Of a stretch of 64,000 bases of DNA, positions 1,850 to 49,961 are shown piece by piece. Both the position numbers and the translations under genes were made by a program. Origin of the DNA: Antedon mediterranea. Taxonomy: Eukaryota; Animalia; Echinodermata. The notes below the pieces were generated by a model, which saw only the letters and a program-made list of their open reading frames with translations, had not been told where the DNA came from and made no database searches. The stretch covers positions 25,789,648-25,853,647 of the forward strand of contig NC_092673.1 in assembly GCF_964355755.1 (NCBI RefSeq), in the 5' to 3' direction. Position 1 is the first letter of the stretch. Every line of letters starts with the position of its first letter.

Positions 1850-2010
1850 ATAATATTCGTTCTTACATAGCGCTTATTGCACAATGCTTCTAAGCGCTGA
1901 ACATTATTACCCCGGTCATTTGTTGTGGATCAAACACGTATGGAAACACACTCCAATAATGCAGCTAGTACTCAGCGCAAAGTTGTGTCTTGATCTAACC
2001 GGGTAGGCCT
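1850..2010 (-). mobile_element. 3' part of tRNA-derived SINE family D (L2-like tail)
   Basis: Matches 29890-30020 (+), 47053-47245 (-) and 56007-56127 (-): TAGCGC...CTAAGCGCTG...ATTATTACC next to an (AAT)n tail. Confidence 0.6.
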
Positions 2011-2989
2011 ACACATGGGAAACGAAAGTAAAATATCGTCGCCCCGTATCAAGGCAAATGATGTAATACATGTCACACATATATCACATGTACTTGTCAC
2101 TCTCTTAACATAATAGTTTAATATAAAACTTAACATTAACAAATAAAACTATTCGAGTGTTGTCCTTTAACGTAAAATGCATTAATAATTAACACAATTG
2201 ATTGTAAAGTTAAATTAAATAAGTTTAAATATAATAGTATATAATGTTATTTATCTTAAGCTTATTTCAAAATAAAGACTAAGCATGTTTTTCTAGTAGA
2301 TAAGGTTTAAAATTAAAGAGTTTCTTTGAGGATATTTTTCTATTAAGTAACTCCTGTATCATACGTCCTCCAACCATTGCGGATGATGAACATCCATATT
2401 AAATTTAAGCATATCATTAAACACCATTAGTAAAAAACATTTTGAATACCAATTAGGCCTACAGACATAATTTAAATTCAACAGACGTTTTTTTAAATCA
2501 TAACAATTTCAATACAACAATACGTGTGGGATCAATAACTGGCTTTAACCATTAGGCCTATTATGTTTATTTATTTATTTGTTTACCGGATACACAGTAT
2601 CCCAATACAATTGAATGTTGATCGGAGTCAAGTTTCAGAATAAAATGGATACCATTTTCCAAAAATTAATAATTAAGTTTTCAAAATTTTCAATAATTAC
2701 GCTTTTAATAAATACGTTTTATATAATTAAATACTTTAAAATAATACTGTTTAGTTTAGAACCGATTAAAGTGATAAAAATACATATTTGATATGCAATG
2801 GAATTAGTTTTGACAAACGTTATTTACAGTTGCATAGCAACAACTATCCACCTTTTTATCAATAAGAAATTGCATCAATATTTTTTATAAATATAATAAT
2901 TAATTGCATCTAATTACTACTTACAGTCTAGGTAAATTCGTTTAAAACCCTGTCGTAAATGCACCGGGATATCTTCCTAATAAGCTAAA

Positions 2990-3139
2990 CAGTAGAACCA
3001 CTCCTTTCGGGACACACCCCTATTAAGGGTGACACCCCTATTAAGGGTGAAACTTTAACATGAAACGAACAAATAAAAACCTTATTGAGAGGAAAGTTTG
3101 TTCAGTCCCGGAAGTGTCTTCTTAGTAGGAGTTCTACTG
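2990..3139. mobile_element. pogo/Tc1-mariner-like MITE
   Basis: Ends CAGTAGAAC...GTTCTACTG with internal GGACAC/GTGTC(C/T) motifs. Related pieces at about 21662-22100, 33760-33917, 44784-45210 and 47246-47358. Confidence 0.5.
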
Positions 3140-3256
3140 TTGTCATTACATTACGGTTATATCATGTAGCGTTTATAATAAATATTCAATGAAAGCTTAT
3201 TATTCATGATATTAGGATAGATATCCCGGTGATAAATATTCCAGTGGGTACAATAA

Positions 3257-3692
3257 AGCGTGGTTCCCACTAGCGACGCAACGTAACGCAACGCAGCGAC
3301 GTTTTGACGCAAAGTTCTATATTGCGTAATCACAAGTGAGAACGACGACGAAATAGTGTTGCATGCAAGCGGGGCACAACACAATTATCGGAAGGGCATT
3401 TTCTTACGTTGCGTCACTTGTGGGAACCAAGCTTAAGCATTGTTCTTGCTCTAAAGCAAGACACGTACGTCAAAACAACAGTAGGCCTACTGCCAAACTG
3501 TGACACGGGCTAAAGCTTGGTTCCCACTAGAACGTAACGCAAGGACGTAAACGCAACGCAAGCGTTTTAACCAATGACAAGCGAAGTTATAGACAGTTAG
3601 CAATCACAAGCGAATAAGCCATCGCTTGTGATTGGTCAATTCACTTGCGTTGCGTTACGTCCTTGCGTTGCGTCGCTAGTGGGAACCACGCT
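3257..3692. mobile_element. Two copies of Harbinger-type MITE family B (3257-3433 and 3514-3692)
   Basis: TIR AGC(G/T)TGGTTCCCACTAG, each copy flanked by TAA on both sides. Other copies at 9872-10077, about 14739-14886, about 20104-20218 and a degenerate one near 905-1015. Confidence 0.8.
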
Positions 3693-3861
3693 TAAGTACG
3701 TACAAATGACGCGCTTGCGTAATGCATACGTACTATACCACATTGGTGCATTGAACTATTTGCGAACTACACAGTGACGCATTTACATACTAACGTGACG
3801 GGCTTGATTACTTAATTGACGTATTTGCGTAAAATACAACGCATTGCACATTTTAAAAGTA

Positions 3862-6800
3862 TTACCCTTGTGATGTTGTTGTAGGCATATAGAGTGCAGT
3901 TACGTGGAAATCAACGTCAATGACATAGTGTGTTGTAGTCAATAGAAGTTCCATTGCATAATCATTTAGATCGGCCTTTCTGGTCTTGTTAGTATAATCA
4001 ACTGTCGTAGCGTTTCTTATTAATACTGCGTTTTGATTTCTATGTTTTATCTGCAAGAAAAAAGTTATGTTATTACATTTATTTAATGTTAAGTAGCTGT
4101 GCTGTTACTAAATGCATATTTTGTGAATTATGTAATTTGTGTAAATCACTCACGCGCGCCCAAACATGATTAACAAAAATATGGGTTTAATCAGGTAGCT
4201 GATGTGTTTGTGTTTTTAAGTGTTAATTGACCAAATAGAACTAGTAAATAGTTCCATGTCCGGTTTTTGACATATTTGCGAGTGAGAGTAATAACTATTA
4301 TGAAGCGAGGGAAAAAAATCAGTAATATTCGATTTGTTTATTTAAAACAGGGATGAGTGACACTTCCCTGTTTAGATTTTTAAAAAGACCGAAAATGTGG
4401 AAAATGCTGTTTTGATAGAGGTGGAATGAATCGCATAGAAGCGTGACGGAGCTATGTATGTAGGCCTACTGGTGTAACAAGAAAATAAGTAAGTAGGTCT
4501 AAAACGACAATTTAACAATCAAATTGTACTTACAATATTTGACATTTTATCACTGATGGTCGTCATCAAATCAGATACTTCCTGAAATTCATTGCTGAAG
4601 TTTCTTAGAGATTGGCTATATAATCGGGCTTCGTTCACCTTTACTTCTTGAAAGACAGTGCGGTATATACCGAGATCAGTTACGTATGTTAATAACAAGT
4701 CCACTTCCTGACGATTAAAAAAATATAGTAAATCAAACTGAACGGAATATATTTCATCAGTGTGGCATATGTTTATTAAGCACGTAATAGAGTAAGATTG
4801 TTCATCGTAATAATCAACCTTACAAGGTAAGAGGGACTAACATAAGAAAAATGCCTACAAAATGATCTAATCTTTGTTACACCTGCTGGTTTCTACGAAA
4901 TTCATTGACGGTGAATATAAGGACTGAATTCAGTATATGATATAATACGACGAACTATAAAGGGTCTATAGTTCGGTATTGTACTAATGTGTGAATTGTT
5001 CCATGGTTAAATACTACAGAGAACAGTCATTGTTGATCGACGTAAAGCGTTAATCAAGTGGAAACTATTCTTTGTGAATTCCTATAGTGCCATATGAATT
5101 ACATGTTATATAGTATTATAACGATTGTTATGGATCACCGGTGTCCGGATAAAAATCCCGCAGGCAGGATCCAGGACATCCGGTCCCGTCCCTTTATGTC
5201 TATCCTGTTGTCAGCCATAGTAGGACTGAAGCTCTGTCTACACCTCTGTCTAAACTATCAAACTAGTTTGACAAAAATGTGTGATGTGCCGAAATATGGT
5301 AGTGATATGACATCATCATGTCATTTGTTGTCACATAAAGTTTGATATGTACGTAGACAAGGAACAAGCAAATTATGTGAATAAAGCTCTGTCTACACTA
5401 TCAAACAAAAAGTTTGATGTACCCATATATGGTAGTGCTATGCTTAAATATGGTAGTGATATGACATCATCATGTCCATATATGGGCACATCACATTTTT
5501 TTGACACATAAAGTTTGATAGTGTAGACAGAGCTTTATGGATAGTATTATTTCAGTACTAATACTAACCCTTGCATTACGGGCGTCTTCAAACGCAAGAT
5601 GAGGTACAGTAATGTTAATGTCGTTGGTGTTGAAGTGTCGTCTACGGAAACGTGTCCGATTCTGTAAAAAAAAACAAGCTAATAAGTAAAAAATATTACA
5701 CTGAATAACATTAAAAGCATCATATCAGATACAATACTAATTTTAAAAAATACACCATGCTAGACATACACCTGAGTTTGTTTATAATATTTAAAAAATA
5801 GTGTGTACTAATTATTAAAACAATTTTCAGAATAAAAGTCCTTATATCATATTAAAATGAAAGTGATAGTAGGCCTAAGTTAAGTAAACACGTTAGTTAT
5901 TTTTATTGTAAGAATATTATACAACAAACAGAACAATAGTATGAATAGGAAAAACATCCTAAAGAACATTTACGTCATTAGTTACCGTAATCGTTTTGAT
6001 TGTAGAAGAATTCTAATAATGCGTCGGTAGGCCTATAGTTTATCAATCGTTGTCTTTTTAGGAGTATGATAATAAGGATAAGAATGATGATGGTAACCAT
6101 GAATGATGAGATGATGATGGGATGTTGTTGGTGATGTTACTGGTGATGTTACTGGTGAGTGGGAGGGTGATAAGATAGTAACATTGAGAATTAAATGTTA
6201 GAGATTGAGATGAGGATGGTAATATTGATGCGGATTTTGTTGATGAGTTTAAATCATAATGATAATGATATTGATGGTGATAGTGGTGTTACTGGTGACG
6301 AGGAGGATAATAAGATGGTTACATTGCGAATGTTAAAGATAGAGATGGGGATGATAATGTTATTGAGATAGAACATTCACTAACTGTGAATTGATTATAA
6401 TTGTGGAAAATCACTTACGTATTCGTTAACAAATGCACTGCAAGACCTCTGTAATTCCGTGATTTTCTCAATAAGAGATGTGTGATGTATTGTCCCTGCT
6501 AATGACACAGACGTTTTGAAGCAGACCAGTATAAACAATGATCCTGAAAGATCAACGTAAAATGATTATTATCTTTTTTAATTTCAATTCACACTCGGAG
6601 AGCCCATCACTTACTAATTGGAATACATAGCAATACGAGACAACATGACAAGAGCAAAACACAATGTGAACTTTGTTGTAATAATTTGTTTGTAACTTTC
6701 AGCTATGGGTTACCCTCATGGTATCGTGTTTGAGTATCGATTAAAGCAAACAAATAAACCAACTTAAAATATTTCTTAATTTTGGATTTATTTAAAGATA

Positions 6801-7729
6801 AACTATGACAGAAAATATCAATATAATGCATGAAATATTAATTAAATAATCTCGGAAGTCTACAAATAAATTTACTGTACACATCCGTTTGGAGGTATCA
6901 CTTATGCCTACTTAAATGTTGCTTACTGCACGTATAAACAAAACCTATCACACATGGCGTGCTTATTCACTCTTCCCTGGCTTATTTACCGATAAACATA
7001 ATGACCGATTTTTCATGTAGTACCGGTATAAAAATAGATAACATGCTACTTTATTTAATGTCACAATTTTCTACATTTACTATCATGAAAAGTCGGACAA
7101 CTGTAATGTTATGGCTAAATTAGTATATTAAATATAAAAAAACTCGTAATAGTTCACTACATTTGTTTGGCCATGTAATTATTGTTTATTTGCATTATTA
7201 TTATGTATTATGAAATATTGCTTTAATTTAGAAATAATTACCAATTTATACAGTTTTTAATTGATTAAAATAAATCATTGCGTGCCACAGAAAGTGTAAA
7301 TGGGTCATGTTTACAAATGAAATACCCTTATAGGCATATACCATTGCAAATAAAAAATTCGGATACATCTTAATATTTCGTATCGTTAATTTTCATGAGC
7401 TGTGATAGTGAGAGAACAGTTGTAGTAAGGAGACAAGAAACTGCACGTGCTGTCTATGTATCTAGACATAATACCGTACGGGAATCGGGTATTCGAAAAA
7501 GTATACATGCCTCAGTAAAATACATCACGCATGCAACCGAATAGGCGTTGCAGTAAAATCAACCAAACAATTGTACTGCAGTAAAAATAATACGTTGCTA
7601 AGAAGCGTTGCAGTAAAAATACATTATCCAACATCTTGAAAACAACGATAAAATTGCCGTCAATTTATCGTATATAATTATCTTAAGTAAATTAAAAAAT
7701 AACTTACCAAATATATTAATAACCATCAT
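3862..7729 (-). CDS. Secreted 200-aa protein, candidate long-chain four-helix (IL-6/CNTF/LIF-like) cytokine, gene A. Exons 7729-7708, 6543-6419, 5661-5569, 4707-4534, 4050-3862
   Basis: All four introns are GT-AG with phases 1,0,0,0 and the spliced frame is open: MMVINIFGSLFILVCFKTSVSLAGTIHHTSLIEKITELQRSCSAFVNEYNRTRFRRRHFNTNDINITVPHLAFEDARNAREVDLLLTYVTDLGIYRTVFQEVKVNEARLYSQSLRNFSNEFQEVSDLMTTISDKMSNIIKHRNQNAVLIRNATTVDYTNKTRKADLNDYAMELLLTTTHYVIDVDFHVTALYMPTTTSQG*. Hydrophobic signal peptide, 5 N-glycosylation sequons. The gene model is read from sequence; the family is inference. Confidence 0.8.
5385..5534. mobile_element. MITE family A copy in intron 3 of gene A (second degenerate copy at 5230-5360)
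   Basis: Complete TIRs AGCTCTGTCTACACTATCAAAC...GTTTGATAGTGTAGACAGAGCT. Confidence 0.8.
6060..6370. repeat. Degenerate (GAT/GGT)n low-complexity tract in intron 2 of gene A
   Basis: Repeated GATGAT, GGTGAT and GTTACTGGTGA units. Confidence 0.7.
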
Positions 7730-8734
7730 TATAGCAATATACAGCTTTAAATGTAAAGAATCGAAATGATTGGTAAGTCGGTGAGTAAATTTTTGCTTGT
7801 TGGTCCTATTAACAATTTTAGTTTATTTATGTTGATGAAAAACTCAGAAATGATGGATGCATTGGTTTAAACTGTTGCTTTTATTTGTTTTTAAGAGGAT
7901 TTACAATTGAATACTATTGTAAATTATTATTAGAAATCTTTGTCAAAGCCGGACCGACGTGACGCAAAATCTATTTTTGGGTTTAAGGATTCGTGAAGGA
8001 AAAGGGTTGACCTTTAACGAATTTTGTTGCTATCTAAAAGCACAATAATATCAATTGTTTTGTTATTTTTAAGTTTCATTTTTTATAAGTTTTCCAAGAA
8101 AATTTTTAAGAGTTGGGCTTACTTGATTTTTTTTTGTTTTTTGTAGTGCCTTATTCATTAACTTGTTTCATTTTTTAGATTGAGGTTTAAACCGTGGGAG
8201 TAAGGGACAAAACCAATAAAACACAATTTTAAATTATTACAAATGTTGTTTTATTTTATTTGTTATTACAATTTTGAATAACATTAGGACTAATTAATTG
8301 GTAGTAATAAAAGTATATGTTTAATGTGCAGAGCTTTCAACAAAATTCCCGTGATGTACGTATGACGAGGCCCTTTCATGTATAGCTTAAGTGGGTGATG
8401 CCTTAAGTGAAATAAGGAGGCAAAGATTATCACTCGTATAATACTCCTGTGAGCCGTTACTTTTATTGGATGGCTATATTATTGCTATGGGTATTTTAAT
8501 TAGTAAGCGTACAGTCTTACCGGTTTTTCAATTATTCAAGTATTATATTTTGAATCATGTAGGTCTTTCAAAGTTATTTCCCGTGGTTTACATGCACTTT
8601 ATATTAGGTCTACAATTTCATTATAAGTATAAGTTGGTTATACATCATGTTACCCATCTAACAGGTTGCAGAATTATAAGTATATTTTGAAAATATGTTT
8701 TCCATGGTTTACGTACTTTATGATGAGTGTGTGA

Positions 8735-8925
8735 CAGTGGCTGTGTGTATACTAGTACACCGGGGTAACCCCCTACTCGTCTCGAAAGATGTACCAGGTC
8801 CTACGGTTTATATTTCTTATCCAAGAAGACTCATTCTACCATACCGCCAGAATCATGTAGCAGGCGAACCCGGAACCCTTGCTGATTTTATGGCTAGATT
8901 TTATGGTTCCACTGTCTTAACCGAT
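8735..8925 (-). mobile_element. Deu/Nin-domain tRNA-SINE family C copy
   Basis: Colinear with the best copy at 38660-38915. Confidence 0.75.
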
Positions 8926-10151
8926 TAGGCACCCACTTGATAACAATAATATAATATTATTCATAGTATTTGTGTCGACAACAATTCCTTCTTTTCCTCG
9001 GTCAATAATTATCATCATCGTGTAATCATCTGTACCTGTCATTGTCATCACCACCATCATCGTATTCATAACCATCACCATCATCAGTACGGTGATCAAC
9101 ATCATTTATTATTAAGATTTATCTTGTTTTCCCATTATATTCGTTCAATGTATTAACGAAATACAGGAACAAAACATAATTCATTATTTCAAGTTACTAA
9201 CCAGTACCAACACGACCGAGACTAGAACTCGGAATCTTCTGCCTGATATATCTACCATTTAGGCTATCATTATGATAGTCAAATTACTCATATATGTTTT
9301 GGTTTTAACCATTATTTAAACATAGGGCCACTAATCAGTTTCTCTCTTTCGTTAGAACAATATACAGTACTGAAAAAAATGTTGTTAGACCTATTTATTG
9401 ATAAACGACTTATTCCTATATGCATTTATAAAAAAATGAATAATATAGAACATTTGATTATAAAAAAAATAAGAATAGAATTAAGTTTAATATAGAAAAT
9501 AACAGAGATGTTCACAGAAATTATTAAAAGAATTGTTTCCTTTTTTGGTATGATTGATGCGCTATTTATACCGGCATCAAAGAGGGTTTGGCTTTGTGCT
9601 TCCGACCAATTACAAATGGATTGCTTCCAGAACAGATTAACAATATATCGTTGTATAGGATAATACAATATAGAATCACTTCAAATATATAATTAATCCT
9701 CATCGGTTAATAGATTAAGGCCATCTATCCTGCTGCGATTATCGGCCAAGGAATTAGCACGTGTGTGGACGTTCCATTGTCCACGATACCAATTTTGGTA
9801 GTCCGGACCATCTATCGTGTCGTGATTGGTCAATTTACTTACGTCGCATCCAAGTGGAAACCAATCTCTAAAGCGTGGTCCCCACTAGAACGTAACGAAG
9901 TGACGTATTGACGCAAAGATAATTATGTATTGCGTAATCAGAAGTGGGAACCGACGACGCAACAGTGCTGCAAACATCGAAGGTTTGATTTCACGCAGAC
10001 GGGGGAAACATATTGGAAGGGCATTTTCTTAGGTTGCGTCGGTTGCGTTATGTTGCGTCGCTAGTGGGAACCAAGCTTTAGGGAGGCTTCAACAAATATT
10101 ATTAGCCAGTTTGAATCGAAAGGAATGGTCACTCTGCTAGATAAATCTTAA

Positions 10152-10444
10152 AGATGTATTGTCCCCCAAAAACATAACAAAAATAAAGATTAATAAAATT
10201 AGACTTTAAATATGCTATTTTTGCATTTTATAGAGCAGAGGAATGAAAGTTTTCCTTATAAAAAGAAAGCATAAATTCTTCAATGTAACCAATTATTGTC
10301 TGACAGAAAATTTACTATATTTTGCTTTGAATTACGTTGATTTAGGTAAATGTTTTTCTCTTATGTGTCATTAAAATGACATATTCAACATACACACTTA
10401 AAAAAGGTATTTTTTTCGAGAGGTGGAGGGGTGACAGTATATCT
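10152..10444. mobile_element. Kolobok-like MITE (TTAA target, AG...CT ends)
   Basis: TTAA|AGATGTATTGTCCCCC...GGGGTGACAGTATATCT|TTAA. A second copy at 21717-22018 is nested in a pogo-like MITE. Confidence 0.6.
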
Positions 10445-13400
10445 TTAAAATTTAAAATTGTCATTTACATAGATATATTATTGTACTTCCTGTTCATTTT
10501 TAAATACAGTATTGTTATTGTTTTGTTTATTATATCAATATTCCAGTTATTAATCGGCAACAATAATACAGAAGTGTCGGGAATTAAACGTCAGGCAAAA
10601 ACCACAACTAAGCTTACGATGCATGTTACGGCGTGTTACCTGATGGAAAAAACCCCACCCTTCAAAGTGACAAATTGAAGGAAGATTCCTTGGAACTAAA
10701 CGATCTTAGTGTTACATACGCCCACTAAATAATCAATCTTCTGGTATCAAAATAAACTCTTCCTTAAACACACAAAAATAACAACGAAATATGAAATAAG
10801 TGTTCCTTCTAGAACAGTGTAAATTATTTTTTTATAAAAGGAAAAAAAACGTTTTATCGATGTTAATATTATTACAATCAAAATAGGCATAGATCAGCAT
10901 AAATTATATTCAATGAGGTAAATTGTCATTTACATAGATATATTATTGTACTTCCTGTTCATTTTTAAATACAGTATTGTTATTGTTTTGTTTATTATAT
11001 CAATATTCCAGTTATTAATCGACAACAATAATACAGAAGTGTCGGGAATTAAACGTCAGGCAAAAACCAAAACTAAGCTTACGATGCATGTTACGGCGTG
11101 TTACCTGATGGAAAAATTCCCACCCTTCAAAGTGACAAATTGAAGGAAGATTCGTGTTACATACGCCCACTAAATAATCAATCTTCTGGTATCAAAATAA
11201 ACTCTTCTTTAAACATACAAAAATAACAACGAAATATGAAATAAGTGTTCCTTCTAGAACAGTGTAAATTATTTTTTTATAAAAGGAAAAAAAACGTTTT
11301 ATCGATGTTAATATTATTACAATCAAAATAGGCATAGATCAGCATAAATTATATTCAATGAGGGCGATCTATCTATCTATCTATCTATATCTATCTATTT
11401 TCTCTTTTCTAATCTGATCAATATGATATTGTTTGCGTGGTTACGGAAATGAAATAATTGAAGACTACTTAATCCCAGAAAAGTAAGGGAAAATAAAATA
11501 TGTTCAGGTATTTCTAGAGGAATGTACTCTATATATTTGCTAGTTTTAAGGATTTCCGCTTAATAAATATCATAATGTTATACAATTTTCCTTTCATATT
11601 GTATACAATGTAATTTTTAATTAAGCCAACGAAATGCTTGCTGTGTCATCTTAAGAGAAAATGTTAAACAGTTTTACTTCACCTCATGCATAATTAGGAG
11701 GATGTGGAAGTCCCATCCTCTAACTTTACAAAATAGAAAATCCGATGGGTTGATCCCTTCAATATTAAGAAGACAATTTCTTCCATTTGCTAAGGCTCTG
11801 TCTACACTATCAAACTTTATGTGACAAACAAATGTGACGTGCCCATATGCGGACATGATGATGTCATATCACTACCATATTTAAGCATATCACTACCATA
11901 TTTAAGAACATCACACTTTTTTGTCAAAGTAGTTTGATAGTGTAGTTTAAATATTTTAATTGTTTTTTTAAGCCTGAAAGACAATATATTTTAATTAAAT
12001 TTTTTTAAATGTAATATGGTTCCATGAATAGTCAAATTAATTCTTAAATACGAAAAAACACAATTAATAACTGAAAAAAATTGTATTAACACGCTTGATA
12101 AAAATTAATGTATGGAATTTAACGAATTACAACAAATAGAAATGTGTTAATTTATCTTCGCGGGATATTGACTTCGCGGTAATTGACGACCTCATCAATA
12201 ATTTTTATTATATATTCATTATGTCCTTTGATTTCCTTTTGTGCTTCTACAGTACACACATTTCTTAATTGAAGAAAATATATAAAATAATACCTAATGG
12301 CCCATCGACAGTTTATTTATAATTATCTTTGAAATAGTTTTAATGATGTTTTGTTTGTCAAAGAGCTTAACGTTGGAAAATATATGTAATGCATAATGGT
12401 GTTTAGAGCAGAGGAATGAAAGTTTTCCTTATAAAAAGAAAGCATAAACTCTTCAATGTAACCAATTATTGTCTGACAGAAAATTTACTATATTTTGCTT
12501 TGAATTACATTGTTTTGGGTAAATTTTTTTCTCTTATGTGTCATTAAAATGACATATTCAACATACACACTTAAAAAAGGTATTTTTTCGAGAGGAGGAG
12601 GGGGGACAGTATATCTTTAAAATTTAAAATTGTCATTTACATAGATATATTATTGTACTTCCTGTTCATTTTTAAATACAGTATTGTTATTGTTTTGTTT
12701 ATTATATCAATATTCCAGTTATTATTCGGCAACAATAATACAGAAGTGGGGAATTAAACGTCAAGCAAAAACCACAACTAAGCTTACGATGCATGTTACG
12801 GCGTGTTAACTGATGAAAAAACCCCACCCTTCAAAGTGACAAATTGAAAGAAGATTCCTTGGAACTAAACGATCTTAGTGTTACATACACCCACTAAATA
12901 ATCAATCTTCTGGTATCAAAATAAACTCTTCCTTAAACACACAAAAATAACAACGAAGTATGAAATAAGTGTTCCTTCTAGAACACTGTAAAATATTTTT
13001 TTATAAAAGGAAAAAAAAACGTTTTATCGATGTTAATATTATTACAATCAAAATAGGCATAGATCAGCATAAATTATATTCGATTAGGGCGATCTGTCTA
13101 TCTATCTATCTCTATCTATCTATTTTCACTTTTCTAATCTGATCAATATGATATTGTTTGCGTGGTTACGGAAATGAAATAATTGAAGACTACTATACTT
13201 AATCCCAGAAAAAGTAAAGGAAAATAAAATATGTTCAGGTATGTCTAGAGGAATGTACGGTACTCTATATGTTTGCTAGTTTTAAGGATTTCCGCTTAAT
13301 AAATATCATAATGTTATACAATTTTCCTTTCATATTGTATACAATGTAATTTTTAATTAAGCCAACGAAATGTTTGCTGTGTCATCTTAAGAGAAAATGT

Positions 13401-14237
13401 GAAACAGTTTTACTTCACCTCATGCATAATTAGGAGGATGTGGAAGTCCCATCCTCTAACTTTACAAAATAGAAAATCCGATGGGTTGATCCCTTCAATA
13501 TTAAGAAGACAATTTCTTCTATTTGTTAAGGCTCTGTCTACACTATCAAACTTTATGTGACAAACAAATGTGACGTGCCCATATGCGGACATGATGATGT
13601 CATATCACTACTATATTTAAGCATATCACTACCATATTTAAGCATATCACTACCATATTTAAGAACATCACACTTTTTTGTCAAAGTAGTTTGATAGTGT
13701 AGTTTAACTATTTTAATTGTTTTTTTAAGCCTGAAAGACAATATATTTTAATTTAATTTTTTTAATGTAATATGTTTCCATGAATAGTCAAATTAATTCT
13801 TAAATACGAAAAAACACAATTAATAACTGAAAAAAATGGTATTAACACGCTTGATAAAAATTAATGTAGATGGAGTTTAACGAATTACTACAAATAGAAA
13901 TGTGTTAATTTATCCCGGACCCCCCCCCCCCCTCACTCTATTCGAGAAGAGGGAGGGACATATTCAAAGCGGGTAAATACGGCGTTTGACTTCGCGGGAT
14001 ATTGACTTCGCGGTAATTGACGACCTCATCAATAATTTTTATTATATATTCATTATGTCCTTTGATTTCCTTTTGTGCTTCTACAGTACACACATTTCTT
14101 AATTGAAGAAAATATATAAAATAATACCTAATGGCCCATCGACAGTTTATTTATAATTATCTTTGAAATAGTTTTAATGATGTTTTGTTTGTCAAAGAGC
14201 TTAACGTTGGAAAATATATGTAATGCATAATGGTGTT
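10231..14237. repeat. Recent tandem duplication (10231-12403 and 12404-14237) containing a ~460-bp block present three times
   Basis: Both units start TAGAGCAGAGGAATGAAAG and end GCATAATGGTGTT. The block occurs at 10455-10918, 10920-11363 and 12626-13089. Confidence 0.9.
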
Positions 14238-15649
14238 TTACCAAACCGATTGAGTGTGAATGCTACGAGGTTTTACGTATCGAAACAATTTCTTTACAAA
14301 AACCATGGATGCAATGTGTTTATGAATATTTCACAATCATAACTGAGATGACAGATGAGAAAAACATACACAGGCTATTCTACATGACCACGTGTCTGGG
14401 TTTTCAATCAATCATCTATGAGAGTGATCCGGGGGTACGGTATCACCAACCTCACCCTAAATTTCACTCAAACTCCATCTATGTGTCCTTCTCATAGGTG
14501 CTCAGCAAAAACGTGGTGTTGATAACTGCAGTTAGGCATTCTTGTTTTCGACGTACTTCTCGGAATAACCAAACAAATAGCCTAGCACACAACCAAAATG
14601 TTTCATTTTCTTATTCATTTTATTGTTAAAATATATTTTTTTCATCTAAATTTTCTTATCAAAATAGCAAATATAATATATGAACTCATCATGAGCAAGA
14701 TACAAAAAATTAAGTTACGCATACGTTCCTGACTATAATGCTTGGTTCCCACTTTAGACGCAATGCAAGGACGTAAACGCACGTAAGTAACGCGCACGAT
14801 TCGACCAATCACAAGAGATGAATTTATTGGTCAACTCGCTTGCGTTGCGTCTACGTCATTGCGCTGCGTCTAGTTGGAACCACGCTTAAATAAGCTTATT
14901 ATAATAAATATTGGTAGTAGACGTTATATTAAATATACTATTAATAAATACTTGTAATAGATAAATCTCAAGGTATCTAAAATAATCTATTATACATATA
15001 GATTCAGCTGCATGTATTGTCTTCGTTATTAGTAATCATAAGCGATTGTCTACATAAATATATAATTGCACGATATATAAATAAACCCTAACTACACAAG
15101 CGAGATCGAAATAAGAGGCGTAATGAAGAAATGGATTAAATGTAAAACTGGTTTGCTGGCTAATTTATATTTGCAACGCTTATTTTTACGGTTATGGAAA
15201 TAAAAGAGTAAAGTAGATTTTTTTTTTTCATTCGTCAATGACGAATAATTGATTGTACTTCATAGCAAATTTGGAACGAAAATACTGTTGCTAAATTAGG
15301 GCTACTACAATTGAGTATATCTAATTTGACTCTATATGTTCCTCATGTCTCGTCTTATTAATTTAAAAAAGGTTAGCTACCCCCTTGAAACTAATTCTTG
15401 TAGGCATAGGTTTTACCAGACCGGTTGATAAATACTAATAGAATAGTGCTAATTGGTGAAATGCCAGACCAACAGATTTTGAATACACCCATTTCTCACA
15501 CACATTTTGTTCAAAGTAATACCAGAAACATTAAGCATTATTTTAGCACACATACAATTAAATAAAGTCAAGTTATACACATCTACACAATTGATTTTGT
15601 GACCGTACATAACTTGTCTCACAAAAATGATTACAAACACTACTAGCGA

Positions 15650-18044
15650 CTAAATGTTCATTTGTATCTCGATTCTCCTTATAGCTAAAACGGCTGTAGG
15701 AAGTATCTTCACGCGACATGCAGATACCTCCAATCGGCCAATAACGTCTCCCCATCCGTCATTTGTACATACATGTGGATCATAACGAAAGGTTGTGGCA
15801 TTCATTATCTAAAATTATAAAATACATATGAAATTGTTAATTTGACGAAACTTTTAAAACACATTGTAGCATCGAAATGATGGGATTTGTGGAAAAAACA
15901 TATAGAGCACGCATGTTCTCTTGCACTGTACATAATTTTAATGTAAAACAGGAAATAGCCTATGCCTAATTTTTATAGGGATGTCAGAGGATGACAAATA
16001 ATAATACTGTACTGTACTAGGAAATTAATAATAATAATATCAAACATTCATAAACCGCTCTTTACCGGAATCTCACATCGCAATATGAAAGGTTTTAAGG
16101 AGAGATTTGAATTTGAATTGAAATGTAAAAATGCTAAATTCCACTTACATTTCTGGCTTCGGTTATCGCATCAACAGTCTTGTTTACTATAATTCCAATG
16201 AACGCAAACTGCTCATCTGAGGTGACGTTATTTTTTACATGAGACTCGTAAAGAGACGTAAATAGGCAATGGTAATTCTCCAACGAATACAGCATATCTT
16301 TTAAAATTTCCACCTGCAAAAATAACTTAGCTAAATTATTATTTATAAGAATTACTGTACGGTTGTGTCTCGAATACGAAACATTCAAATAAGCCCTGCT
16401 TAACTATCGTAAAACCTAAAAAAAAAGAAGCACCCCTTTCTTTTCGAAAAGACTCCCCTGTTTGGTTTGCAAAAGTAATCTCGAAAAGAAGCCCTTTTCA
16501 AAATAAAGATACTGTAGATAGGCTTCTCTTAATGCCAGATGCAGAATAATAATGTATGATCGTATTTATATCGTACATTTTTTGTTGGTGTTTTGATCTA
16601 CTTCGTTGGCTAAAAAAAATTATTTACAGGGAATTTCTCAAAACCATATTATTGTATTAGCAATTCACAAGATGAGGATGCACATTGGTTTTATTTTGGG
16701 ATGCGAGAAAAATTGACATCAAACAGCCCTCTTATTTTTTTTATTATTATTTTTATTTAAAAATAAGTAGGTTAAATACCGTATTGTTTTTTCCAAGGAG
16801 AGAAATATATAGACTGGGAAAATGAATAGTGCACACATTTGCAGCTGCAGAAATTGAATCCTGTGAATAAATGTATAGAAAACAGTTAATACAGCTATTA
16901 TTACAGTTCAATTATTATCAACGTGATATTTGGTGTAAAACTTAGGGGATATAATATGAGACAATAATGATAACGGTGTATTATTAATCAATTGTTTTAA
17001 GTGTGATCCATCAAATAAAGATATGAGATGTGATTGGAAGATAGTGAATGAATGATATTTTTAAAAGACGGAAGCCCAGATCAGTGATATCACTGAGGCC
17101 TTCCACTGGGGCTCCTGTACTAATAATATGTACTTATCTCAAATTTAACAAAGACTAATAAAGTTGAAGAAGCCTAAAGCAAAACCTTATTCATCAATCA
17201 TGTTAACAATTTCAATTACTTATAACATTTATCAATACTAGATATTTGGCACTTTACATTTAAAAAATTCAGCAGGATAGTTAATTAAAGATATAATACG
17301 GTTGAAGAGAATTTTTGTAATAAATGTGTTGAGAGGTGACCTCATTGTTCACACTGCCTTTTAATATAATAATAAAGTAAACTTACCTTTAATTCAAGCG
17401 TATCTTCTATAACTTTACACAGATTTGCGATTGGTTCAAAAAGTGGCGTCAAATTGACTTCAGTATCCCATGCTGGTGCGATTGGTTCAAAAAGTGATGT
17501 CAAATTGACTTCAGTAACCCATGCTGGTGTAGCCACCACCGTTGTCGCAGGTAGTGTAGTCGGCGCTCCGACTGCAAATGTCATCACGTACCCAATCAAT
17601 AATATTACTAAAATTATTGAGAACATTTCAAATTATAATTTGACAATTTTGTTTAGAATCATAAACTGCTAAAGATTACCAGTTTATTTTGATTTTACAA
17701 TTGATTGACAAATTGATTCATGTTCGTTTAAAATTATTATCAAATCGCCGCATATTTTCATAGCTTTAGGCCTAGGGTCAACTCATTTGTTAGTTAACCT
17801 GATGATCCGACCCACTTAATAAAATTCTGATTTTCTCCTCACACAACATAATAAACAAAACCAATCCAACAATCCATCACGACAGAAAGCACATTCATCT
17901 AACACGAATGAAATAAATTCAAAACATTTATGAAACCTTAAGTTTTACTAATAAATCAACAAAACAATTAGTGTAACTATTGAGAAGTATATCAGTAAAA
18001 ATAAATAATTGTATCCACTCACCGTAAGATGTATAAGAAGCCAT
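15650..18044 (-). CDS. Secreted 215-aa protein, candidate long-chain four-helix cytokine, gene B. Exons 18044-18023, 17607-17387, 16860-16780, 16313-16149, 15808-15650
   Basis: All introns GT-AG, phases 1,0,0,0, first coding exon 22 nt as in gene A. Spliced product: MASYTSYVILLIGYVMTFAVGAPTTLPATTVVATPAWVTEVNLTSLFEPIAPAWDTEVNLTPLFEPIANLCKVIEDTLELKDSISAAANVCTIHFPSLYISLLGKNNTVEILKDMLYSLENYHCLFTSLYESHVKNNVTSDEQFAFIGIIVNKTVDAITEARNIMNATTFRYDPHVCTNDGWGDVIGRLEVSACRVKILPTAVLAIRRIEIQMNI*. Signal peptide ending near AVG-AP, 5 Cys, several sequons. Confidence 0.75.
17426..17527 (-). repeat. In-frame 51-bp tandem duplication in exon 2 of gene B
   Basis: Units 17426-17476 and 17477-17527 encode PAW(V/D)TEVNLT(S/P)LFEPIA twice. 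Confidence 0.95.
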
Positions 18045-19167: not shown

Positions 19168-20556
19168 TATATGATTTGTTATGTCTTGATTGTTGGTGGA
19201 CGCCTGTGAATGTTTAGTGGTAATCTTTGCTAATTGTTACATGAAGGATGGGGAAATGTTTATATTCTACAGGGAAACCATTAGCATTGCTCTTAATGTG
19301 AAAATGTGACTAATAAAACATCTCGAATAAGCTGGCCTGGCATTATTAAAAAAACTCAATCAGCTCCAGAAGCATTTAGACCATCATTCTTTATTATCAA
19401 TAATGACGTGCAAAACCAGTATAGTTTGTTACAATTCACATTATTTATTAAGCTATGTCTACACTCTCAAACTAGTTGTGATGTGCCCAAATATGGTAGA
19501 GATGTTTCCAAGTATGATAGTGATATTACATCATCATGTCCATGGGGACATCACATTTTTTGTGTCAAATAAAGTTTGATAAAGTGTAGACAGAGCGTAA
19601 TTCTGCGCAATTATTTTCTTTATCTTTCCCACCCATCTGATTCCATTTGGCATCCTTGATAGTTGGTCAGCATAGATCCTGAAGGAAGTGGTAAAATATT
19701 CTATAGCGTGGTTTATTACAAAACGTCCTGACGTTTAGTCACTAACGTTATTTTATAAACTTAACCATTAAATATTGAACAACGTGCCATAACATTTCAA
19801 TTTATTAGATTGTTTTTAGGTTTTGTGTTTTTTTTTACTTTTTTCGTTTTTAATAATAAAATGAATTGTTTAATAAAATAGGGCTCTTCTGTTAGCGGAT
19901 TTGGTCAGTGTTAGTGGTAGTTGTGTTTTTTCTGTGGATTCCAACAGCACTCTCCACACCTCCTCATTTCCCAGCCCGCTTACAGTATTGGTTTCTTGGT
20001 AATTAGCCCTAATATTGATTTGATTTGCGAGTGTAACCTTTTAGAAGCCCAATTGTTCACCTCTTTTTAACTTTTAGAATGGAAAAGGCATTATATTTTT
20101 TTGTTGGTTCCCACTAGGACGAAATGCCAAACTTTGACCAATCACGAGGCGATAGATGATAAGTGCGCTTGCGTATGCTACTTCTTGTGTTCCGTTCTAG
20201 GGGATTGAGAACTAAGCTTTACCATGCATTTGGTGCACGTGGTGCTTTTCCTAATACACCTTTATTATTACCAATTGGTCTAATTATTACTGAGTAGGTC
20301 CTTGCTTTATAAGTATGTATAAGCTTTAAATTTAAATGTGCGGCGCTTAAGTTATAATACGACTCTTCCAGTCATCGGATCATTACTTCATTTAACACGA
20401 GCCCAGACTTCTTAGAATTGTGTACAGTACAGAATGTTTTCTTATTACTGATTTTATTGGATTTATTTTATGCCAACATAGCAAACCAGCCTATTGAATA
20501 CTGGAAAATCATTACAGTGATTACTTTTCTGGTAAAACTTGTATAGTAGGGTCTCG

Positions 20557-20790
20557 ATGTGACGTCACATTTTGATAGTCCAGTTGTGGATAACTTAAAT
20601 GTGAAAGTTATATATAATATGGAAGTAAAAATACAGCTGTTAGTTCTTTTTTTACTGTATAATAGTTTAGGCCTCTAAAACTCATCCGAAAGGGAATTCC
20701 CCTAACTTGACGTCACAATCTCTAACCACTTCCCATTGGTTGATATATTTACAGGTTGTACTTATTTTCCAAGGCACGTTGTGACGTAAA
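20557..20790. promoter_or_regulatory. Promoter region of FUOM with two CRE palindromes, a kappaB palindrome and a CCAAT box
   Basis: TGACGTCA at 20560-20567 and 20708-20715, GGGAATTCCC at 20692-20701, ATTGG near 20735, all within 270 bp of the FUOM ATG. Confidence 0.55.
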
Positions 20791-32800: not shown

Positions 32801-35800
32801 CTTCGTCTACAGTTCCAAAACGAAACAGTATGTCATACTTTGCATTGTGATAAGGTGAAAAAGTTAAAGAAAAGAAAATAAACTGTAAATGTATGCAAAA
32901 AAAAGATACAATAGAAATTACCAAATGTGTCAATCCTCCATACTGTGACAGTTTATTGAAATTGGAACAAAATCAGGGACAAATTTGAAGAAAAGAAAAC
33001 TTTCAGTTGATTAAATCCAGTGACTCATTCATATCTATAAATGTATTTAACTATACAACAGGAACAATATAAGTGTGTCAAGCCTGTATTTCGATTGTTT
33101 GCAGGTTTTTAGGAAGTGTGTGTAGGTAAAAGGAAAACATAATATAAATATTTTGATTAAGCACTGTTCTGTCAGACGCAGTTAGTCAATTAGATTCTTG
33201 GAATACGATTAGGTGTAAGGGACTATTGGTATACTCCTACGCCAGTCATTGAACCCATTGTATTTTGTATATTAAGAAAATAGAATATAAGCTTCATGTG
33301 GAAAAAACTTATTCAATTACTAATTTAACCTTTAAAATTAGTGTGAATAATAGTAAATACCTGTACTATCACTCTATCATGACACTTCCGGGCTGGGTGG
33401 TATCAGGTCCACCCCCTTGATCAATGGACCAGATGCCTGCATGAGTTGACCTTGTTATTTATTATGACAATGCAATATTACTATTTAATGAAATGGGTAA
33501 ATAAAAAAAAAGAATTGGTATATTGGCATATACTGTAGGTACTGCTGATAAAGTATCATATTTGAGTGACCTCTGTATTAACAACTATAATATGTTGATT
33601 CCTATTAAAAGTTATGAAATATGTTTTACCAGGAAGAGTTAAATTTATTTCACTCTTCACTGGTTTTACATCCCATACATTGCATTTGTTACTGCTGGAA
33701 AAGTTCTGGAAATTGACTACAAAGGCATTATAAGTTATATCAATTTGTGTTTTTACAATATAGTAAAACCCGTCCTTTGGAACACCCCTATGCAAGAGAC
33801 ACCACAAAAGGAACAATTTCCCATGAGGAGCAAAATACTTTTTAATTTAGAGGACACTACACTCTATAAAGAAATATTTGGGTCCTGAGGGTATCCCCAT
33901 AATAGTTGTTCTAATGTACATTACCACAGTAACCATTCCTAACTCAATCCTATAGTTTGCCCTGATGGGATCAAATATATCTGAATCCAACCAATCTAGA
34001 TGCTGTTCCTCTTCATATGTTTGAGTATGGTAGCCAGAATTTAGATTGTACGAAGATAATGTTTCTTTGAAATGTTTACACTGGTAAATTACTTTATGTT
34101 TGATCAAGGATATAGACAAATACTATTCATTAATTCACAAGTACAGTAGTTAACCAGTAAAATCCCTATGTTATGAATGATATTTCTGTAGCGCTTTAAA
34201 AGGGAACTTATTTTAGAACACTCTTTCTGCTTTACCACCCATGACGAATAAAGTGGAGTTTATAGTTATTATCAATTGTGTAGCAAAGCTTTATATTTAT
34301 ATTTTATAATAAGCAAGAACCTTTTAATACCTAGAGTCACCCTTTAATAAATGTACATTTTAGACATACCCTTCTTTTTGGGCATCTCTACTCAAGGAAC
34401 ATTCCTAGTAAGGTCGTTAATAATAAGGATTCTACTGTTCATTATCATAGGTATTGTTCTTTTTATTGTCATCAAAAAGACGTGGCAATTATCATAAGGG
34501 CGTGTGGCGCAGTTTGTTGGACGTTGGTTTAATGATCGTGAAGTCATGGGTTCAAATCCAACACTGATTATTAGCTGCATTAATGGGAATATGTTTACAT
34601 ACATTTTTGATGCCAAAAATTGAATAAAATGGGTTAATGTCTAATAACATTATGCACTTTATATAACTCCAGGATATTATTATGAAATAAAATGAACACA
34701 ATCTTCATATTTTAATTTCAGGCAGTGGTGATGCAGTTAGTGGATAGTGATGCTCAGCGACAGTTAAAAACCCCTGTTTGGGAAATATATAAAGAAATGT
34801 TAACAGAGGCAGAAGGTAGACAGGTAATAATAATATCAACTTTTCCCTGTTTACTGTGATAAGGAATGTCACATGAAATTAAGATTATAATATCCAGTAG
34901 TTTCTATGAAGGGATGGATGAGTCATGCACCTTTGTAGTGCATGCATAATATTATACTGTCCTCCTCTTCTTCTCATGTGTCAGTGCTTCCTCTCTCCCA
35001 TATGCCTCGCCTGTATCCCCGGGTATTACACGTACCTCACATCATTCACTACCTCCTGCCTCGCATATGGTAGTGCCTTATCTCTTGCATAAGGAATACC
35101 TTCTCCCTTACATATGGAATGCTTCTCCTTACATATGGATTGCCCACTACAATGATAAGTAGGCACATTCTTCAGTGGGAGATGGAACACTTGACCTGAT
35201 TTTAAGTACAGTATTGTAATAGCGGAAATTTAATCTGTTTATTGACCACTGATCAATAAAAACAATTTATTTCTGATGACTTTACCACAAAATGAGACAT
35301 TGTTTTTAATGTGACCTTCAGTTTACTATGTAATAATTGTTTATATAGTAGTAGGGGGAAAAAAGATATCATTTTAGAACAATGTGTGATTTTTAGTTGT
35401 TTATTTATTAACAAATATTAATAAATGTTCCTGTTTTCTGTTCTGTATTTCTAATCTTGAAATGTTTGTATTTCTTCTAGATAATAATTCAGATTATTAG
35501 AAAATGCAGTAGGGTCTATAAACCCACCCCTTGTTGCACTTTCCCATAATAAACATTAATATATAATCTTTAAAACACCATAATATTCAGAATGAAAATG
35601 TCTTACTATTTATACACAAAATAAATTCAATAGTGAATCAGTAGTGTCTAATTTCAATTAATTGTTTTGATTTGTATTTTTCTATTTCTAGATAGAATTG
35701 AGAAAGGTTGAACGATTCAAGTTTTATGATCGAGCACGAACAGCTTTTGCTGTTGTAGCAACAGGGTATTTAGAATTTTCTCAAAAAGTATTTTCTATTT

Positions 35801-39934: not shown

Positions 39935-42900
39935 TTAATTGTACCAATCAAGGAATAATAATGTAAATGAGCACATAAACAAGAAAAATAAAATCCACAC
40001 TCGAAGACTTGCATTATTCTTGATAGCCTGGGGAAAAAATTAAAATAAGAATTAGCGAAAAATTAAGTAATAATTATTTTTACATACCTAAATTGATTCT
40101 TTAATGATTTGATATCTTTTAATAAGCGCTTTCATTTCGAAAGGTTTAGGCCTTGGCATAGCGTCTCGTTAAAAGTAGGTGCGTTATAAAACAAATGTTT
40201 ATATTCGTGCAATGTTACAAATAATTTCATTCGGTGAAGGATGAAATGTTCTGTTTTAGAGATAGAAACCTATCATCTTTCACCTCATGAAATTATTTGT
40301 ACCATTCCACTCATAAACATTCATTATTTGTATAACTAGTATATTTCAGAATGTAACATCATTAATGCAACTCACTTCTCTTATAGCTTCTGTAGCACCT
40401 TCAACATTCTCAGTAGATGTCACAGCTTTTTCTATAACTTGATCAATAACATTATCCTATTGAGTAAGCAAAGATATTTTATTTACTTATTTGGTGCAAT
40501 AATAATTCAATATTAAAAATGGGTTTATTTTTTTAGATAACTGCTTACTATGGTACCATAAGATGATGATAACACAATACATATGCATATATATATTTTA
40601 GTGCATAATAATTCATTTTTAAAAAGTACATGTTTTGCAAATTTTTTGACAAATTCCTTAATATAGTACAGGAATTGTTTTATCAAAAAATTGGCACATT
40701 TTTACCATTATAATTTTTTTACGCAACTGCTTTAATATGGTAACATAAGATAAGATGCAATATATATGCATATATATTAATTTGAGTGCATACAAATTCA
40801 TTTGTAATTATTTTTTGTACATAATAATTCATTTTTAAAAAGTCCATATTTTTGCCATTTTTCGACAAATTCAACAAATCATAAAATTATTTGTACCATT
40901 GCACTCATAAACATTCATTATTTTGTATAATATACCACTGTATAAATGTTTTCACCTGTTTTACAACCTCATCCATAAACACTGTTTGTAAAGCTGCAAT
41001 ATCTACAACCTTTCCTTCTAGTTCTCTAAAAAAATAAAAGAAGCTAATTTATTAAAAAACATCAACACTAAACTATTAAACTGGATTTTGGCTCCCAAAT
41101 ATGCAGATGCTGTTGTTAAAGCCACTCAATTCTTCCTCCCTGAGAGTTCATGCAAAACATACAAAAATATTCTTAAATTTAATTTGAACAATTACAGTAT
41201 ATCTATCTATCAACCGAGACTCGAACCCGAAACCTTCTGCTTGATATGTAGATATCCTAACCATTAGACCACTGGGCTTTCATGGTATTGTTCAAACTCG
41301 ATTGGAACACCTCTAGTCCCTCAATATATATATATCTTTTGACCATATAAATATTAATATTTTTTAATTTATTTTAATTGTTTACATTTGTATATTATAA
41401 CCTGTATATTGTTTTTTACATTGTACAATGAACACAAATTGGTGGTTTCATTTACAATTTCTGGCTTTTAAAATATGAGTGGAGGAGGAGGGCCATCAAA
41501 CATTTTAGAAAGAAAGAGAAGTGATCTTATTATTTACCTGACTTCATCAAGATTATTTTTCTCCTGCAGCATCATCTGGTTTTCTTGTTGGAACTGAAAT
41601 AATAAAAATAAATCAAAAATTCAAGATATAAATTTGCATATTTCGGCAGAGCATAGCACCCTCAATTTGACGATTTTAGCAAAATGAAAAGAAATATGGT
41701 GCTTTTAGTGTAGGAAGGGGGAGAGAACGAAAGTGATAATTTAAATAATTTTGTTTGGATTATTAATTATGAAAAAGCTTATTTTCTCCACAAAATTCTT
41801 ATGAAATGTGTTTTTTTAAAGAATAGTGGTAACAAATTATAATAAGTTGGAATAATTTGCCGGCATTCCAGTAATAATTTATACGCAAAATTTATTTTTT
41901 AAAAAAAACACTATAGAAGCCAAAGTTCAGAATGATTTGAATGGCAAATCACCTAATTTTTAACTAACTATAGAGGGGGTTGTACAGTACTGTAAGGAAA
42001 ATATTTTAAACCAATCATTTTTCCTATACTTGTTATACCCAGTTCAATTGAATTGGAATATTTTATTTAAACTTGGTAACCTCTCCCGTCTCCAAGAGGG
42101 CCCAGTTATGATCAGTGGATGTGATATACTAGTACACTGGATACAACCTCTCATCTCAAAAGATGTACTAGGTTCTTTAGATTGCACAAAGAGCTAGATG
42201 TGTAGTATAACACTGGACCTACAGTTTATAGTCCTTATCCAAAAAGACTCATTCTACCACCAGAACCATGGAGCGAGTGAGTCTTGTATCATTGCCGATA
42301 TTACGGCCACTCACTCACTCTAACGAATGAAATTTGTTATACCTGTTAGTACTGGGAATACACAAGCTTAAAGAAATTAATGAATAAAGTACCATTGCAA
42401 TTTCTTCAGGAGATAGCTCATTGTCAGAATACTCTTCATGATTAGTTACTTGGTTTGATAAATCTGAAATAGAATATAAAAATCAATCCCCAGATTACAA
42501 ATGCTCACTTTACTGTGCTGTATATATACGAAAATAGGGAGAATATTTTACCAGTCACTTTTCTATTAACTATTTCAATAGCAAATCAAACACAAGAACG
42601 ATCAAACAAAAACGATCAAACAATCGGTGGTTGCCACACACAACCCACGCATCTGACATACGCAAACAAAACGTTATCTCATCCGGCCGTGTTTACCAGC
42701 GGAAAAAGTCTGATCGTTTTGCAGATTGTTGTGCTATACATGGGAGTGTTATTTCCGGGCCAACTAGAGGTGCCATTTATCATGAATTTTATGTGAGCGA
42801 GAGTACCATTTCCGACCTGGGGTGTTATTTACAAAAGGGGCCTGTGGCTCAAATACTTAGTATCTGGACCCCCCGCCCCCTATTTAAAAATCCTGGATCC

Positions 42901-48900: not shown

Positions 48901-49670
48901 TAATACATACTGTAATTATACTAATACAAAAATAAAATTACCTGAAAACAAACAAATATTTGTGAGAGAAGAGCCTCTTTACTTACTTGATGATCAGCTT
49001 GTGTGACCCATTGCGTGTCATATACAATACAAGTTGTCTTTTCTGCTGGCTAACGTTTGAGGGACCCAATAAAAAATTGTGTTTGTAAATATTTTGGTTG
49101 TAATTATAAATGTGTAAAGACAAATTTGAAAAGAATGTTGGTCCAAAAAAGAATAATTAAGGTTGACATATTGACCACCTCAAATGGGAAATTTCAGTAA
49201 TGTTTTGAAAATAAATATTTTCAACAAAACGAAGATAACACCGCACAGCCTGTGGTGCGAAATAGCAGTATTACTATTAAAATACTTAAAATATTATATT
49301 ATTGAATGAAGCAGACCTATTTATTTATAAATGTATTTACAAATAATCATTGCAAAGCCGATCTCCTATCTATGGCAAACTTCCCTGCGGTAAAACGTCA
49401 CGGGCCGAAACTTCACGGGGCGAATCGACCATCTGCCGAATCTTCCACGACCGAATCCTTACGCTGCTGGGCTGTGAGATCACAATACACTACAACGCGG
49501 GGGCCTAGCAGCAGTGTACCTACCATTTCTTTGGATTTGGTGGAGAATTCTGTTTTTGGACGACTGGACTTTAAAATTGAACTTTTTAAATTGTCTTGAC
49601 CAGTTCCTAGAGCTTTATTTCTTGTTCGAACAGTTTTAACTGAAGCTTTGAAAAGTGCTGTTATGTCCAT
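39935..49670 (-). CDS. STX18: Syntaxin-18, 311 aa. Exons 49670-49524, 48877-48810, 48696-48581, 48242-48165, 47472-47406, 43016-42928, 42463-42393, 41593-41538, 41025-40956, 40456-40376, 40027-39935
   Basis: [22 protein letters not shown]...[15 protein letters not shown]...[20 protein letters not shown]...[26 protein letters not shown]...FQQENQ...[33 protein letters not shown]. Shows the N-terminus, SNARE motif and C-terminal TM of STX18; 936 nt spliced in frame. Confidence 0.95.
43050..46833. mobile_element. ~3.8-kb non-autonomous DNA transposon, Kolobok-like, in STX18 intron 5
   Basis: TTAA|GAGCCATTGTCTGTAA...TTACAGACAATGGCTC|TTAA. Imperfect inverted similarity continues for about 500 bp. 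No transposase ORF seen. A pogo-like MITE is nested at about 44784-45210. Confidence 0.75.
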
Positions 49671-49961
49671 CTTGCGTTTCGCTGGTTTTGATGATGTGGG
49701 AAATCTGGAAATTTAGTCTGCGCTGCCCAGTTGTGTGACCTTTTGCGTTTAAAACATGGCCATTATGACGGGAATTGTAACGCGATTAAATAACGTTTAC
49801 CTACGTTTTGTCTAAGATTAAACGCGTTTTGTTAAACTGTTAACTCATGAAATCACTGCTTGTCGCTGGAACTCAGAAAAAAGAAAGAAGGAAAAAGGGA
49901 AGGAAAGGAGTTGTCAGATTGATCAATTTTAGCCTCGTATTAAACGTTTTTATTATTAATT
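49671..49961. promoter_or_regulatory. Bidirectional promoter region between STX18 and VPS51
   Basis: Divergent start codons only 291 bp apart; locally CpG-richer; YY1-like AACATGGCC near 49753. Confidence 0.7.

Follow-up and report, generated by a model that had tools for sequence, protein, structure and literature searches.

A 2026 survey reports an IL6R-like receptor from sea urchin and acorn worm and IL-6 ligands from vertebrates only (PMC13203501). For Aedes, an Upd-like protein was shown to act through Dome and JAK/STAT (10.1101/2025.09.21.677592), and a review on amphioxus GHl mentions that acorn worms and sea squirts yielded none and does not contain the word echinoderm (PMC9010856). 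Here, we analysed a stretch of 64,000 nucleotides from the feather star Antedon mediterranea (NC_092673.1, positions 25,789,648 to 25,853,647 of the forward strand; hereafter the window), for which an initial annotation had postulated a tandem pair of cryptic class-I helical cytokine genes, here referred to as gene A and gene B. From our point of view, gene A would encode a crinoid long-chain class-I cytokine (IL-6/LIF-like) that acts via JAK/STAT, and gene B likely represents a further gene of this type that has diverged strongly, a reading to which we assign a probability of about 65%.

In the literature, with subscription journals mostly uncovered and supplements excluded, we found no report on class-I cytokine genes of crinoids or of echinoderms in general. 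The sole echinoderm claim that we met is a starfish 'IL-6-like molecule' from 1996, which occurs as a reference title in PMC9465101 and PMC8226699. A structure-based interferon screen reports no class-II fold in invertebrates except lancelets (10.64898/2026.05.30.728932), and PMC13736523 added nothing on helical cytokines. A and B are candidate JAK/STAT ligands in a lineage in which the ligand has been reported missing, with strong support for A and less certain support for B.

Two five-exon gene models on the minus strand

Both genes are five-exon models on the minus strand and lie at the limits that the initial annotation had given (Table 1). Its description of two same-strand genes with common intron phases and particular exon sizes is borne out, and the two models are present as described: the phases are 1-0-0-0 in either gene, all eight introns run from GT to AG, internal stops are absent, and the spans 7729-3862 (gene A) and 18044-15650 (gene B) hold 200 and 215 codons, respectively. 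The first coding exon of 22 nt that had been proposed for both genes holds for the models as such; counted from the start codon used by NCBI, however, that of A measures 19 nt, and that of B is uncertain due to an alternative ATG discussed below.

Vertebrate genes of the IL-6/IL-11/G-CSF type have the intron phases 1-0-0-0, and the LIF, OSM and CNTF genes have fewer exons. The former type of gene structure is, as had been suggested, seen in both A and B, with the first coding exon of B being uncertain; the IL-6 gene layout used for this comparison was taken from PMC13081863. The GC content of exons exceeds that of introns in A (0.37 vs 0.32) as well as in B (0.40 vs 0.29).

Five N-glycosylation sequons in A and six in B agree with the several sequons claimed at the outset. 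The N-terminus is hydrophobic in A, in B and in the orthologue of A from Anneissia japonica (protein lengths of 199, 215 and 196 aa, respectively), which agrees with the signal peptides claimed and with the signal peptide and mature chain of about 170-200 residues expected of long-chain class-I helical cytokines; the signal peptides are called from hydropathy only. On these sequence features, the product of gene A is likely secreted and glycosylated.

A strict search for the layout, which included a hydrophobic N-terminus and covered both strands of the window, returned only the loci A and B, and of 945 copies of the window generated by an order-4 Markov model, 2 contained any such chain. What tells against our reading here is that, under a loose version of the layout, 324 of the 945 copies contained a chain and the real window showed five additional exon-2 starts, and that the thresholds were chosen after the genes had been seen, which makes the null threshold-dependent. 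As such, the layout search supports the gene models and does not prove them.

Conservation of gene A among crinoids

Gene A is a real gene that is conserved among crinoids. A query with exon 4 gave, among four candidates, one protein that is identical over the query, namely XP_071948875.1, an uncharacterized, unnamed protein of 199 aa that NCBI has predicted for Antedon mediterranea. The spliced model of A equals this protein from residue 2 on, the NCBI start being the second ATG. The term cryptic does not apply to A, which had already been predicted even if not named; for B, no database match was obtained. A search of 1.84 billion representatives with XP_071948875.1 returned two matches, the protein itself and XP_033110289.1 of Anneissia japonica, which shares 43% identity with A (E 5e-37) and is colinear with it from end to end, with two one-residue gaps that both lie away from the junctions. 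No further family member was found among the 555 candidates of a search with the A profile, none of 262 pattern matches in a metagenome scan was confirmed, and when the A profile was run against all six frames of the window (2088 pieces), nothing beyond four exons of A itself was retrieved.

Signs of transcription come from run X1, which we guess to be RNA. It contains a 555-letter contig whose first 378 letters lie on 3673-4050, with the exact match ending at the exon-5 acceptor. The sum of 378 and the 174 nt of exon 4 is 552, which is near 555 and fits splicing of intron 4, and the depth is 27.5 both on 3673-4050 and at 4699 in exon 4. Of the junctions initially predicted for A, the one between exons 4 and 5 hence fits a contig; this joint itself and the other three junctions are not found among the 15 X1 joints listed out of 2232. 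Another contig with a depth of 38.8 covers 2500-3279 and continues for 524 letters past its matched end, and intronic pieces in gene A have a depth of 3-6, compared to the 27.5 and 38.8 in exon 5 and the likely 3' untranslated region (UTR). AATAAA motifs are located at 2571-2579 and 1760.

Three exonic differences are listed for A, two of them synonymous and one changing N to D, and the indels within A and B are intronic in all listed cases (four among 12 of 39 rows, and both rows of another listing). The runs X2-X5 represent one sample with even cover of both genes that may be the source of the assembly, and they are not independent. High-copy repeats occur in gene A once in intron 3 and once in the likely 3' UTR.

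Predicted fold and family of gene A

In the feature comparison of the ESM Atlas, the best cluster for A was a LIF/OSM-Hormone_1 cluster with a score of 0.94 and 215 of 256 features in common. Ranks 2-4 were taken by unnamed clusters of 223-230 aa with a score of 0.92, one from Cnidaria with 56 members, one from Arthropoda with 56 and one from Mollusca with 114, of which 11% carry Pfam IL6, followed in later rows by IL-6, G-CSF, cardiotrophin and IL-11 clusters at 0.91-0.92, and a CNTF cluster was also among the matches. The ten best family-bearing matches all belong to one clan, and Hormone_1 is present in the clusters ranked 1, 5 and 9 (on 16%, 33% and 18% of members). The Atlas model of A has a predicted template modelling score (pTM) of 0.74 and a predicted local distance difference test (pLDDT) of 0.73, and its best structure row is an IL-27 alpha cluster with template modelling (TM) scores of 0.63/0.66 over 152 residues, with all other rows at 0.44 or below. 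The structure comparison has predicted models on both sides, and we count the feature and structure results as one source.

Helices in a low-confidence AlphaFold2 model of A span residues 21-53, 78-105, 112-139 and 162-190. These predicted helices map to exons 2, 4, 4 and 5, respectively, with a long AB, a short BC and a long CD loop, and up-up-down-down bundles need long AB and CD loops and a short BC loop (PMC7378365). This spacing agrees with the match of the Atlas model. Taken together, the helical-cytokine reading of A is well supported by the Atlas feature and structure matches, the layout of helices and loops relative to the exons and the conserved crinoid orthologue, and it is very probable that A is an echinoderm long-chain class-I helical cytokine.

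Several results point in the opposite direction. The fold claim derives from a single predictor family (ESM), 4-10 of 100 shuffled proteins attain a feature score of 0.9, a third of the shuffled proteins obtain a top ten from one clan, and both AlphaFold2 models are of low reliability (pLDDT 33 and 37) and too poor to decide on the fold. At the level of sequence, neither crinoid A protein matched a Pfam cytokine or Unpaired family up to E 10, the models IL6, IL11, LIF_OSM, CNTF, GCSF and Hormone_1 gave no match at E up to 10 with both proteins and eight exon pieces, and searches of the PDB with the A sequence and the A profile matched no solved cytokine. Both crinoid A proteins are devoid of tryptophan, and mature A contains one cysteine, which is not shared with the orthologue. 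One could thus imagine that A is a secreted four-helix protein other than a cytokine, and that its Atlas matches reflect generic secreted helical features, as the missing sequence match to any cytokine and the Atlas false-positive rates, which are not negligible, would suggest. We regard this as quite improbable, given that the TM score of 0.63 to IL-27 alpha is well above that of the other rows and that loop spacing and exon layout agree independently.

An assignment of A to IL-6 proper was considered and rejected because the site-III tryptophan is missing. This residue is Trp157 in IL-6 (PMC7378365) and corresponds to W195/W197 in IL-27p28 (PMC9535766).

The main functional rival for A is a hormone-like role, namely that A is a GH/leptin-type long-chain helical hormone for growth, metabolism or osmoregulation with a short homodimeric receptor, and not an inflammatory IL-6-type signal. 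Such a role would be compatible with the Hormone_1 share in three of the top nine Atlas clusters, with the missing site-III tryptophan and with regulatory sequences that lack any enrichment: two STAT-like sites lie upstream of A and two upstream of B, which is background given 31 in the window, and ATTTA motifs occur at 6.0 per kb in the likely UTR of A compared to 5.2 per kb. Amphioxus, moreover, possesses a 208-aa GH-like type-I helical cytokine with a GHR-like partner (PMC9010856). On the other hand, IL-27 alpha provides the top structure row, and the majority of the named feature rows belong to the gp130 family (LIF, IL-6, IL-11, CNTF, cardiotrophin, G-CSF). GH and prolactin contain disulfides between AB loop and helix D and at the C-terminus, and the cysteines for disulfides of this type are all missing from A. 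We consider a hormone-like role unlikely and favour an IL-6/LIF-like cytokine as the product of gene A.

Gene B and its relation to gene A

Gene B is probably a real gene. Its 215-codon frame is intact, its GC content by codon position (0.46/0.39/0.34) is coding-like, and it shares the strand with A at a distance of 8 kb, with the same phases and with lengths of exons 3-5 that differ by 1-10 codons. At 17626, shortly before the exon-2 acceptor, lies an in-frame ATG that would provide a signal-like N-terminus without exon 1, and the 22-nt first coding exon of B is consequently unproven; lamprey IL-6.2 is without the corresponding first intron (PMC13081863). Within exon 2, two tandem copies of 51 nt (17 residues) at 17430-17530 (-), each with a sequon, account for part of its greater length. 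Cys91 (exon 3) and Cys194 (exon 5) are present, a C-terminal cysteine pair is not, and Trp182 follows the start of the last exon by 19 residues, which would place it at the start of helix D. The positions of Cys91, Cys194 and Trp182 are presumably those of long-chain cytokines. Layout, coding-like composition and residue pattern make the chances that B is a helical cytokine somewhat better than even, and the class proposed for both genes at the outset is in this way argued for B by these features and for A by Atlas matches, helix layout and orthologue. Downstream of the B stop, at 14600-15649 (-), ATTTA motifs occur at 11.4 per kb compared to 5.2 per kb for the strand of the window, a value uncorrected for local AT content.

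The very low identity between A and B that had been stated is evident, and, together with the searches on B, it weighs against a pair of cytokine genes. The local alignment score is reached by 171 of 1000 shuffles, 835 of 2000 shuffles score as high as B against the A profile, a junction-fixed alignment is not significant (p 0.086), and hhalign gives a probability of 0.5%. Only two of six junction-anchored windows are at p about 0.02, both in exon 4, where helix periodicity alone could yield such values. The B protein is absent from 11 candidates in the protein collection (weak evidence), and exon 4 of B alone found no cytokine in the Atlas, its best match scoring 0.87 with bacterial hypothetical proteins, a result that has no single-exon control from A. 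In addition, sequence searches of the PDB with exons 4 and 5 of B gave nothing meaningful. Run X1 contains no joint over gene B and only short unspliced pieces (depth 2-4) that leave exons 2, 3 and 5 uncovered, and is uninformative on its expression.

These results could be explained if A were a class-I helical cytokine and B encoded a secreted glycoprotein without relation to it, or if B were a gene in decay or one that has been modelled wrongly, in which case no cytokine cluster would exist. Four tests without A-B similarity beyond chance, the missing database protein and the missing Atlas cytokine signal of exon 4 fit this possibility, as do the five cysteines and the internal repeat of B, both without counterpart in A, and the frequency of such layouts under the loose null. 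We nevertheless find an unrelated B rather doubtful: strand, distance, phases, near-equal sizes of exons 3-5 and the intact frame speak against it, the two windows that align to the A profile near junctions fall into helix regions, and fast divergence is usual for such ligands, with the orthologue of A showing only 43% identity within feather stars. In our preferred reading of B as a second, highly diverged cytokine gene, A and B may share a common origin. Although A and B are adjacent and have the same layout, their similarity is not significant, and the comparison with the Drosophila unpaired cluster that had been made, and with it an origin by tandem duplication, is only tentative.

Surrounding sequence

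A fucose mutarotase-like gene (20825 to about 36080, plus strand; Pfam RbsD_FucU, E 1.9e-5) is arranged head to head with B at a distance of 2.8 kb. Between both, an NF-kB-like site is located at 20692; the window holds six such matches in total, two of which overlap here. In an intron of the fucose mutarotase-like gene, two abutting open frames of 96 and 91 residues without Pfam match (33556-34122, minus strand) are possibly the remnant of a decayed mobile element. Further along, Syntaxin-18 (about 40300-49700, minus strand; Pfam E 1.1e-8) and a VPS51-like gene (from about 50400, plus strand) form another head-to-head pair, and the Pfam match of the latter is below cut-off significance (E 0.074). 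CYTL1 is a predicted helical cytokine. In human 4p16, the gene order is STX18, MSX1, CYTL1 (PMC4804413), and synteny of this region with the window is a weak lead that concerns one shared gene only.

Between A and B, at 10231-14238, there is a near-identical non-coding tandem duplication of about 2 kb (93-99% in most blocks) with an internal 450-nt copy. Very high-copy short repeats, present on tens of thousands of contigs, are found at 5244-5537, 3510-3690, 11780-11950, 19477-19600 and at other positions.

Table 1. Positions of the parts of genes A and B within the window.
Feature	Position	Strand	Description
Gene A exon 1 (coding)	7708..7729	-	22 nt if counted from the first ATG, 19 nt with the NCBI start; phase-1 donor
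Gene A exon 2	6419..6543	-	125 nt; remainder of likely signal peptide and predicted helix A
Gene A exon 3	5569..5661	-	93 nt; predicted long AB loop
Gene A exon 4	4534..4707	-	174 nt; predicted helices B and C
Gene A exon 5 (coding)	3862..4050	-	189 nt including stop; predicted long CD loop and helix D
Gene A likely long 3' UTR, end uncertain	1976..3861	-	inferred from X1 contig depth and AATAAA motifs
Gene B putative coding exon 1	18023..18044	-	22 nt with donor GTGAGT; possibly untranslated
Gene B exon 2	17387..17607	-	221 nt; likely signal peptide, linker rich in Thr/Pro, two repeats of 17 residues, and an amphipathic stretch as putative helix A
Gene B exon 3	16780..16860	-	81 nt; putative AB loop, Cys91
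Gene B exon 4	16149..16313	-	165 nt; putative helices B and C, Cys124
Gene B exon 5	15650..15808	-	159 nt including stop; putative CD loop and helix D; Cys177, Trp182, Cys194

Discussion

If A and B are indeed ligands of the IL-6 type, the question arises how they would act. Judging from hydropathy and sequons, both proteins would be secreted and glycosylated, and a ligand of this fold class would be expected to bind the cytokine-binding region of a receptor of the IL6R/gp130/Domeless type and to bring two receptor chains together, by which JAK and STAT would be activated. Without a site-III tryptophan, A may use its sites I and II for receptor dimerisation, and Trp182 in the last exon of B could serve as a hot spot of the site-III type. 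A role in infection, injury or regeneration can be suggested by analogy only. In any case, XP_071948875.1 makes the missing echinoderm JAK/STAT ligand directly testable in a regeneration model and, if the cytokine reading is true, long-chain class-I cytokines would date back to at least the deuterostome ancestor.

Compared with the vertebrate gp130/IL-6 family and G-CSF, A differs in that it has no sequence match to them in Pfam or PDB and no site-III tryptophan. None of the syntenic neighbours of IL-6 (PMC13081863), such as TOMM7, was recognised near A and B in the window, for which no systematic search was made. The Drosophila Unpaired 1-3 and Aedes Upd-like proteins resemble A and B as secreted, cytokine-like proteins of invertebrates that are too diverged for BLAST. 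They differ in that the Pfam Unpaired model is not matched by A, that A and B belong to a deuterostome lineage and that the similarity of A to B is not significant.

Amphioxus GHl is, like A, a class-I helical protein of about 200 aa from an invertebrate deuterostome with low identity to vertebrate members (PMC9010856). Unlike a relative, however, GHl was returned by neither of the two protein searches with A, and the nearest structure row of A is IL-27 alpha.

Lastly, the unnamed Atlas clusters of Cnidaria, Arthropoda and Mollusca resemble A in their feature scores only, without alignment or E-value, and provide a lead to an unannotated animal-wide family of cytokine-like proteins that includes cnidarians. 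One could speculate that A and B are the echinoderm members of an ancient, unnamed family of IL-6-like JAK/STAT ligands to which these cnidarian, mollusc and arthropod clusters also belong, that the pair records an early split into a two-site form lacking the site-III tryptophan (A) and a three-site form that has it (B), and that both act as signals in injury and arm regeneration of feather stars. We put this forward as a tentative idea that may well turn out to be wrong; if it were true, the class-I cytokines of the long-chain type, together with the layout of five exons, would be far older than the vertebrates.

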